From IMG/VR virus record IMGVR_UViG_2671181019_000012, positions 1-20,910 of that record: a DNA stretch of 20,910 nucleotides; one strand, given 5' to 3'. This document shows positions 14,025-14,658 of the stretch, piece after piece. The first letter of the stretch is position 1. The number at the start of each line of letters is the position of its first letter. Source of the DNA: a virus. Lineage: Duplodnaviria; Heunggongvirae; Uroviricota; Caudoviricetes. Below the pieces are notes generated by a model. It was not told the origin of the DNA and made no database searches. It saw only the letters and a program-made list of their open reading frames with translations. The position numbers and the translations under genes are program-made.

Positions 14025-14052
14025 TTTTAGCGGCTAAAATTTTAGCCGCTAA
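14025..14052. promoter_or_regulatory. 28-bp perfect palindrome just upstream of the AlpA-like gene
   Basis: TTTAGCGGCTAAAA|TTTTAGCCGCTAAA; candidate operator. Confidence 0.45.
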
Positions 14053-14303
14053 AGTTTGCTAACCAACGTTATGAATTGAGAATAATTAAAACTTACTGGC
14101 AAAAAGAATAATGTCAACAGGGTTTTTATTCATCGGATTCTTACTCCATATGAAATTGGTTTTATTGACCGATTTCTGAATGACACTAAGGTTTTAATAA
14201 TTCCTTTAATCTTTTTGGTTATATAAAAGGTTAAAGATCAGGTTAGAGAGGTGTGGAAAAGCGATATATTCACTTGTTTACTATGACAATTTTAAATTAT
14301 ATC

Positions 14304-14369
14304 CGTACCTCAAATGTCATGAAAGCGTACCTCATATGTCATAAAGGCGTACCTCATATGTCATATAAT
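14304..14369 (+). repeat. Three tandem 22-bp iteron-like direct repeats
   Basis: CGTACCTCAAATGTCATGAAAG / CGTACCTCATATGTCATAAAGG / CGTACCTCATATGTCATATAAT, contiguous. Confidence 0.8.
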
Positions 14370-14410
14370 AAAAAATAAGCAAACAAGTTATACACAATAT
14401 TATTAACAGA

Positions 14411-14432
14411 ATCTGTGGATAAATACACAGAT
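14411..14432. promoter_or_regulatory. DnaA-box-like TGTGGATAA inside a 7-bp inverted repeat, in AT-rich tract
   Basis: TGTGGATAA (14414-14422) equals consensus TTATCCACA on the other strand; flanked by ATCTGTG/CACAGAT. Confidence 0.4.
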
Positions 14433-14452
14433 TATACATGATAAAATAGATT

Positions 14453-14658
14453 GTTTAGCTAAACTAAATAACAATAAATAAAATGAAACAAAATGTAAAT
14501 AACAGGGGGGGGGGGGTAAGTGACTTATAAATTTGGTTAGCTAACCTTTATAAGAAACACTGTTTGTAAATGATTCATTTCTGACAACGGATATATCGAA
14601 TTTGAGTAAGAAAAACACTTCAACTAACCTTACTCTCTGATTTGTTTAGCTAAACAAA
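14453..14658. promoter_or_regulatory. Three TTAGCTAA-core palindromes upstream of the HTH gene (candidate operators)
   Basis: GTTTAGCTAAAC (14453-14464), GGTTAGCTAACC (14535-14546), TTTGTTTAGCTAAACAAA (14641-14658). Confidence 0.5.
14505..14516. repeat. Homopolymeric G12 tract
   Basis: Twelve consecutive G between operator-like palindromes 1 and 2. Confidence 0.9.

Follow-up and report, generated by a model that had tools for sequence, protein, structure and literature searches.

Candidate KorA and KorB operators of IncP-1 plasmids in a vestigial IncP-1-type origin on a thrW defence island of Escherichia coli

IncP-1 plasmids, which are major broad-host-range carriers of resistance genes, are controlled by the global regulators KorA and KorB. 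In RK2, the KorA operator (OA) is the 12-mer GTTTAGCTAAAC and the KorB operator (OB) the 13-mer TTTAGC(C/G)GCTAAA, and the two are bound by two different proteins, KorA and KorB (PMC2680271); the OA and OB consensus is also given in PMC3614916, and the KorB operator oligonucleotide in PMC13584720 is TTTTAGCGGCTAAAA. KorB, which is also the ParB protein in IncC/KorB partition, loads at OB and there forms a cytidine triphosphate (CTP)-dependent clamp that closes and slides up to 1.5 kb, and KorA or TrbA at its operator captures the sliding KorB, occluding RNA polymerase (PMC11790492, PMC13584720). Here we analyse palindromes of both operator types in one intergenic region of a window of 20,910 nucleotides (the whole stretch studied, positions 1 to 20,910 of IMG/VR record IMGVR_UViG_2671181019_000012) that matches Escherichia coli chromosomes at 99.6-99.8% identity and that, from about position 8000 to its end, consists of an island bounded by a tyrosine integrase and the transfer RNA gene tRNA-Thr adjoining proA (thrW).

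Islands that carry int, alpA, traJ and trbJKL, such as GIsul2 and the IncP island, have been predicted to exploit IncP plasmids (PMC5704250). A preprint of January 2026 reports that related islands, termed PIMEs, are excised and mobilised by the IncP-1 plasmids pB10 and pKJK5, with helper-induced excision and mobilisation shown for two PIME1 elements only, and that PIME1 lowers pB10 copy number; it describes unexplained "two inverted repeats" beside the replication origin (oriV) of PIME1, states that the inducer is under investigation, and mentions neither KorA, KorB nor their operators (bioRxiv 10.64898/2026.01.12.698999). Given that the preprint's search required a replicase, the replicase-less thrW islands fall outside that study. 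In a different helper family, Salmonella genomic island 1 (SGI1) carries two mimics of helper parS sites (PMC10954446).

The intergenic region of the thrW island contains four palindromes, which an initial annotation had described as a single family with a TTAGC core, bound by one regulator, the 85-aa helix-turn-helix (HTH) protein encoded beside them. All four are present, with coordinates off by 1-2 bp, and exceed chance by far. They are very probably protein-binding operators, as had been proposed, and we consider it likely that they are operators of the IncP-1 global regulators KorB and KorA, acted on in trans by a helper plasmid. The sites are listed here with their conservation in a six-way alignment of the thrW family (alignment A1), in which the variants are 92, 86, 80, 76 and 74% identical to the window.

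14026 to 14038, no strand assigned: OB-a, an exact IncP-1 KorB operator, TTTAGCGGCTAAA, kept in all six variants with G or C as its central base
14041 to 14053, no strand assigned: OB-b, an exact KorB operator, TTTAGCCGCTAAA, 15 bp centre-to-centre from OB-a
14453 to 14464, no strand assigned: OA1, an exact KorA operator, GTTTAGCTAAAC, with 12 of 12 alignment columns invariant
14524 to 14554, no strand assigned: the OA-like palindrome GGTTAGCTAACC (14535 to 14546) with its flanking arms, a symmetric two-mismatch variant of OA
14640 to 14659, no strand assigned: OA2, an exact KorA operator (14644 to 14655) within the 20-bp perfect palindrome ATTTGTTTAGCTAAACAAAT
12939 to 12951, no strand assigned: the OB-like sequence TTTAGCTGCTAAA, with one mismatch (central base T), in the 5' end of trbJ

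OB-a and OB-b abut to form the perfect 28-bp palindrome of the initial annotation, which spans 14026-14053 rather than 14025-14052, has 100% complementary arms (14026-39 and 14040-53) and lies 22 nt from an ATG at 14003 and 34 nt from the RefSeq-annotated ATG at 13991. OA1 stands exactly where it had been placed, whereas the palindrome given as 14641-14658 is in fact 20 bp long; the OA2 within it is the last conserved backbone element ahead of the variable region. The arms around GGTTAGCTAACC are imperfect (CTTATAAA ttt ... TTTATAAG). Exact GTTTAGCTAAAC and exact TTTAGCSGCTAAA each occur twice, against 0.00 expected in either case, and the 8-mer TTAGCTAA occurs four times against 0.53 expected, a count reached in one of 100 shuffles. 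Further copies of the motifs, for which the initial annotation had suggested a search, include the fourth 8-mer, at 13186 inside traJ, which is probably there by chance, and the one-mismatch OB in trbJ. In the trbJ genes of IncP-1-like plasmids an exact OB occupies the codon position of this one-mismatch copy, as it also does in two thrW variants (L005 and L008).

The plasmid controls were pEC187_3 (L003) and an IncP plasmid with mcr-1 (L004), both of them enterobacterial and IncP-1-like. Each carries 12 copies of the OB motif, against 0.05-0.07 expected; exact OA is confined to two places, one ahead of a korA-like gene and the other within the divergent trbA/ssb-trfA region, both with the textbook layout of OB, TTGAC(C/T), 17 nt and TAAACT. 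No higA lies near the OA or OB sites of the IncP-1-like plasmids, nor does any OA precede the plasmid higBA. The two motif types of the island are identical in sequence, letter for letter, to two known operators, and the palindromes do not form one family. The TTTAGC half-site common to OA and OB is a known resemblance between the two operators and no evidence for a single binder.

That the 85-aa HTH protein binds all of the TTAGC-core palindromes, regulating itself and the excisionase-like gene, now appears very unlikely. The gene in question is the following:

14701 to 14958, plus strand: solo HigA-family HTH gene (85 aa), with no higB partner; TIGR02607 match at 65.9 bits against a cutoff of 47.7

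HigA antitoxins commonly autoregulate via palindromes, the HigA-family gene always follows OA2 in thrW islands, and in the window it begins only 45 nt downstream of OA2. However, this gene exists as three alleles across the thrW variants that are only 34-52% identical, differ in their recognition-helix regions and start at distances between 45 and about 300 nt from OA2, whereas the sites themselves are unchanged, which argues against HigA as their cognate binder. A site that served HigA would be expected to covary with its cognate higA and to lie at its promoter; here the site is invariant, the distance varies, and no higB was found between OA2 and higA, including in variants with the longer gap. 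In addition, the same motifs on IncP-1-like plasmids are not beside higA, OA and OB have two different binders in RK2, and in a guaA island (L010), which retains OB and OA, the HigA gene lies beyond trbL.

The six thrW variants share a backbone in which every open reading frame (ORF) is intact, and differ in cargo, which comprises cyclic oligonucleotide-based antiphage signalling systems (CBASS), retrons, ABC-three-component or AAA/HNH systems. Within the intergenic region, 55 of the 62 operator columns are invariant, compared to 44% of the remaining intergenic columns (Fisher p=5e-12) and 36% of columns outside all named features. The central base of OB flips between G and C among variants, just as the degeneracy of the KorB consensus allows, which indicates that the conserved unit is the 13-mer and not the 28-bp hairpin; the 28-mer is a perfect palindrome in some lineages only, and most variants have C/C or G/G as the two OB central bases. 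Two tracts in the window, G12 at 14506-14517 and A8G8 at 14686-14699, are lineage-specific, with mixed sequence there in other variants; total length varies by a few bases among close relatives, and slippage or sequencing error in the two tracts could account for this.

These patterns also bear on whether the palindromes act as nucleic-acid hairpins, whether terminators or single-strand initiation or processing signals in an origin, rather than as protein operators, which we judge extremely unlikely. The arms flanking GGTTAGCTAACC covary, reading CTTATAAA/TTTATAAG in the window and CCACAAA/TTTGTGG in L006 and L007 (13076-13101), so that an extended palindrome or hairpin has been maintained, and all of the palindromes fold better than shuffled controls. 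Good folding is expected of any palindrome, though, and the z-scores therefore do not discriminate; a promoter and terminator scan of 13400-15300 found no T-run after any palindrome, Rfam places no family at any of them, and the 28-mer is not a perfect hairpin in most variants. In L007, the left arm of the GGTTAGCTAACC palindrome also creates a DnaA-box-like TTATCCACA.

The surroundings of the operators are those of a plasmid origin. The OB and OA sites lie in what is, judged by its sequence, a vestigial IncP-1-type oriV beside an IncP-type transfer origin (oriT), traJ and trbJ-K-L, with the following elements:

14304 to 14365, minus strand: three IncP-1/TrfA-type iterons, TGACAT(A/T)TGAGGTAC, at 22-bp spacing
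14414 to 14422, minus strand: DnaA box TTATCCACA, at the same relative position as in plasmid oriVs
14186 to 14250, minus strand: conserved AT-rich oriV block, CTCTAACC.GATCTTTAACC..., with 51 of 65 columns invariant
13457 to 13556, minus strand: IncP-type oriT, upstream of traJ, with a hairpin at 13501-13552 and the nick motif ATCCTG|C at 13548-54

The minus strand of the intergenic region is collinear with the oriV of both control plasmids; read on that strand, the order is OA-type sites, DnaA box, three iterons and AT-rich block. The window iterons are of the same type as those of the pEC187_3 oriV, and those of one variant (L009) have the RK2 consensus TGACACTTGAGGGGC. The region thus combines the clustered iterons of about 17 bp at a 22-bp period, the DnaA box and the AT-rich region of an IncP-1 oriV; no GC-rich block lies between the AT-rich region and the OB pair, and no cognate trfA is present, there being no TrfA homologue on the element. 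The 22-bp-spaced direct repeats, the DnaA box and the presence of two distinct known operators had escaped the initial annotation. The oriT is 92% identical to that of the mcr-1 IncP plasmid and is matched by the Rfam traJ-II motif at 93 bits, the only Rfam family found over the region; given that this strong match coincides with oriT, the traJ-II family may largely describe the oriT DNA hairpin.

Conjugation genes follow to the left of oriT:

13074 to 13439, minus strand: traJ, encoding a NikA-like oriT-binding relaxosome protein
10616 to 12992, minus strand: trbJ, a trbK-like lipoprotein gene and trbL, the sole type IV secretion system (T4SS) genes present

In the window copy, TrbJ is 89% and TrbL 60% identical to the pEC187_3 proteins, and across nine island copies compared by tblastn the identities to the plasmid proteins are 68-76% for TraJ, 79-90% for TrbJ and 50-60% for TrbL. 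The same nine copies yielded no homologue of KorA, KorB, IncC, TrbA, TrfA, TraI, TraK or KorC (tblastn, E<=1). The thrW island therefore keeps the cis-sites of the IncP-1 backbone without the proteins that read them. An IncP-1 plasmid would carry many dispersed OB copies together with korB and incC; the island has two to three copies and neither gene, so its OB sites are orphan in cis.

The absence of cognate genes, the reduction of the T4SS to three genes and the lack of canonical promoter geometry at the OA sites would all fit a captured IncP-1 plasmid fragment whose sites are inert relics without present function. We consider this unlikely, as the sites have remained nearly invariant while the surrounding DNA drifted to 36-44% invariant columns and the backbone ORFs are intact in all variants. 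The plasmid oriVs have merely degenerate OA-like half-sites at the collinear positions, where the islands have perfect palindromes. Finally, the same set of sites recurs in distant integrative and mobilizable elements (IMEs), which bears out the conservation in related elements that the initial annotation had proposed to check. In the guaA island L010, which encodes AlpA, RepA, traJ and trbJKL, the stretch from oriT to the island's own origin holds OB, an iteron-like repeat and OA; we call L010 PIME1-like by gene content only, and the 60 matches listed for it do not include RHB23-C07, the strain studied experimentally. In a 58%-GC metagenomic mini-IME (L018), an exact OB and OA precede an operon with a homologue (53% identical) of the 93-aa protein described below, and two more OBs follow a traJ-like gene, with no korA or korB. 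Five other species likewise carry the double OB, in IncP-like plasmids and in chromosomal elements that resemble the IncP island.

The OB pair lies directly ahead of the gene that the initial annotation called AlpA-like:

13710 to 13991, minus strand: 93-aa DNA-binding protein with a predicted excisionase/MerR-type winged helix and a C-terminal KRGRP.K AT-hook-like motif

Residues 1-51 of this protein are identical in all six variants save S3P, and in an alignment of the wider family (A2), which has no annotation, both the N-terminal core and the C-terminal KRGRP.K motif are invariant. It has no Pfam or NCBIfam match, and hence none to AlpA/HTH_17, BLASTP against true AlpA is insignificant, and a sequence search of the PDB gave no match. 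Its AlphaFold model, with a per-residue confidence (pLDDT) of 86-90 over residues 11-60, resembles excisionase and MerR winged helices, including RdfS and the GIsul2 excisionase, with target-normalised TM-scores of 0.6-0.74 and weak E-values of 0.04-0.2, so that "excisionase/AlpA-like" would apply at the level of the predicted fold only. In a filamentous prophage (L017) a homologue precedes a Rep_trans gene, and in Burkholderia (L016) one overlaps the start of a trfA-family gene.

An island protein other than HigA, most plausibly this winged-helix/AT-hook protein, might bind the double OB, either for autoregulation or as part of a recombination-directionality architecture. Its N-terminal domain is as conserved as the sites, its modelled fold is excisionase/MerR-like, the GIsul2 excisionase included, and the operon of its L018 homologue, too, has OB and OA ahead of it. 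Even so, this is very unlikely: OB equals the KorB consensus down to its degenerate centre, OBs are found on plasmids that lack the 93-aa family (which has no matches among enterobacterial plasmids), and no OB lies upstream of the L016 and L017 homologues. Excisionases, moreover, usually bind direct repeats near att sites and not a 13-bp palindrome.

How helper-encoded KorB and KorA would act at these sites can be outlined from the plasmid system. When a low-GC enterobacterial IncP-1-like plasmid is present in the cell, its KorB would load at the island OB pair, slide as a CTP clamp and be captured by KorA at the OA-type sites, which lie 420, 500 and 610 bp away, thereby placing the island control region under the helper's regulatory circuit. 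IncC/KorB could in addition use the OB and OA sites as a centromere or be decoyed by them, and the iterons could act as an origin that depends on TrfA or as a TrfA sink. A -10-like TAAAAT sits at the junction of the two OBs, with a conserved block, TAACGTTGGTT, upstream of it, and is by our reading the only plausible -10 for the leftward 93aa-oriT-traJ-trbJKL gene string. The suggestion that the sites link the excisionase-fold gene and the island transfer module to a regulatory circuit is supported, with helper proteins as the predicted regulators. Conserved OA and OB sites and TrfA-type iterons on islands without KorA, KorB and TrfA point to specific helper factors. What the sequence itself shows is identity to the operators, their conservation, a plasmid-like setting and the lack of cognate genes; actual binding by KorA and KorB and the direction of any regulatory effect are inferred.

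Several observations weigh against assigning the sites to helper KorB and KorA. TAAACT or TAAACA occurs inside each OA site with no good -35 at 16-18 nt, unlike the korA and trfA promoters of the plasmids, and promoter-like sites are not enriched in the 13400-15300 scan (3 versus 6.9 expected). Candidate promoters, read by hand and tool only, are TTGGTT-16-TAAAAT at the OB pair and TTTACA-17-TATTGT just right of OA1. Co-residence of the chromosomal island with an IncP-like plasmid was seen in 0 of 301 matching E. coli complete genomes, each of which contributed a single record; given that only about three co-occurrences are expected by chance, by a rough estimate, this absence is suggestive at most, and trbK-mediated exclusion or incompatibility is a possible cause. 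KorA and KorB are repressors, and repression alone does not explain the helper-induced excision reported for PIMEs. In our reading, binding by KorA and KorB and its effects on expression are predicted from operator sequence, and mobilisation of the thrW subfamily itself is likewise a prediction.

If helper KorB and KorA do occupy these sites, the difficulty posed by repression might be met in several ways: a HigA-type island repressor could be shut off, a ParB-type clamp could counter-silence the 31%-GC region, the sites could act by centromere mimicry, or they could titrate helper repressors and TrfA, which would fit the reduced pB10 copy number with PIME1. A more ambitious reading, which we offer only tentatively, is that the OB-OB/iteron/OA cluster serves a PIME-like defence island without a replicase as the hub for sensing its helper and exploiting it. 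KorB of the helper would load at the double OB in a 31%-GC, maybe H-NS-prone region and, with KorA at OA providing the clamp stops, would switch the 93aa-traJ-trbJKL operon, possibly by counter-silencing like the VirB and BisD clamps; helper TrfA would fire the island iterons, and IncC/KorB would partition the excised circle or be titrated by it. Such an element would outsource its regulation, replication and segregation wholly via cis-site mimicry of the helper plasmid.

Between the OA-like palindrome and OA2 lies one further conserved element:

14588 to 14600, no strand assigned: block CGGATATATCGAA with an 8-bp palindrome, GATATATC, invariant in all six variants

We considered the GGATATATCG block as a possible TrbA operator, which it may resemble; the nearest matches on pEC187_3 have one mismatch and are not enriched.

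The remainder of the island completes the backbone and its cargo. Its order is int, a 296-aa gene, a VbhA-like gene, a 70-aa gene, trbL, the trbK-like lipoprotein gene, trbJ, traJ, the 93-aa gene, the intergenic region analysed here, the HigA-family gene and cargo.

8096 to 9199, plus strand: tyrosine integrase of the island, at the end away from tRNA-Thr

The gene for the 296-aa protein (9209-10099, plus strand) has no family match and is followed by a VbhA-family antitoxin gene of about 230 nt (RefSeq annotation, identical copies); together they are possibly a toxin-antitoxin pair that the island backbone has conserved. Three cargo genes at 18166-20910 on the minus strand give full-length matches to the PADLOC candidate defence models Hp3, Hp2 and Hp1 (E 3e-80 to 5e-176), at the cargo position that holds CBASS, retron, ABC-three-component or AAA+HNH systems in sister islands. 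Window positions 1-8000 are an unrelated prophage-like segment with yfdP-T-like genes, a second integrase (6811-7974) and a tRNA-Ser-like feature; this segment abuts the integrase end of the island in some strains, and paoD or a LysR fragment is found there in others.

The OA and OB operators themselves are textbook IncP-1 biology. What appears to be new is that a mobilizable defence island carries orphan operator sites of a helper plasmid and an origin of the helper type; in the literature searched, subscription-only papers lying outside it, KorA or KorB operators are not reported from islands of this kind. Islands of the thrW type carry anti-phage systems, namely CBASS, retrons, ABC-three-component and PADLOC candidate systems, and the openly stated question of how PIMEs sense their helper gains a concrete, testable answer.

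Several known systems can be set beside the locus. It shares with HigA-type autoregulatory operators a palindrome shortly upstream of a HigA-family gene, but the island has no higB, its sites are invariant as HigA diverges, and the same sites are far from higA on plasmids. With the IncP-1 (RK2/RP4) KorA-OA/KorB-OB network, the likeness is as follows: OA GTTTAGCTAAAC and OB TTTAGCSGCTAAA are identical on the island, KorB is documented to slide up to 1.5 kb, which covers the 420-610 bp from OB to OA, and the sites are found beside TrfA iterons, oriT and traJ, with an OB (OB-like in the window) in the 5' end of trbJ. In contrast to the plasmid network, the island is chromosomal and has no cis-encoded regulators, its OBs abut as a pair where pEC187_3 and the mcr-1 IncP plasmid show single OBs, and it packs three OA-type sites into 200 bp without a canonical -35.

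With PIMEs, the thrW island shares a tyrosine integrase, a small regulator of excisionase/AlpA type (here at fold level only), traJ with an IncP-like oriT, trbJ-K-L as the only genes of an incomplete T4SS, and a large immune-system cargo beside an attachment site of the tRNA/guaA type; L010 carries the same OB and OA sites. It differs in lacking a luxR-type partner, which together with the missing replicase places thrW islands outside the search criteria of the preprint, and in having a helper-type oriV in place of a replicase: no repA or repC is annotated or was found in thrW islands, while L010 has RepA_C.

The closest functional precedent is SGI1 with its mimics of helper parS sites. Like the thrW island, SGI1 is an IME that carries copies of its helper's ParB-binding sites, two ParB-family sites in each case; helper regulators, acting through AcaCD boxes, time its life cycle, and it encodes a few replacement mating-pore subunits. 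The helper family is unrelated, however, SGI1 has its own replicase, and it senses the activator AcaCD, whereas KorA and KorB repress. If our reading of the operators is correct, the KorB sliding clamp and KorA lock, recently described for plasmids that regulate themselves, would apply to cross-talk between mobile elements as well, a parallel to the hijacking of IncC ParB by SGI1.

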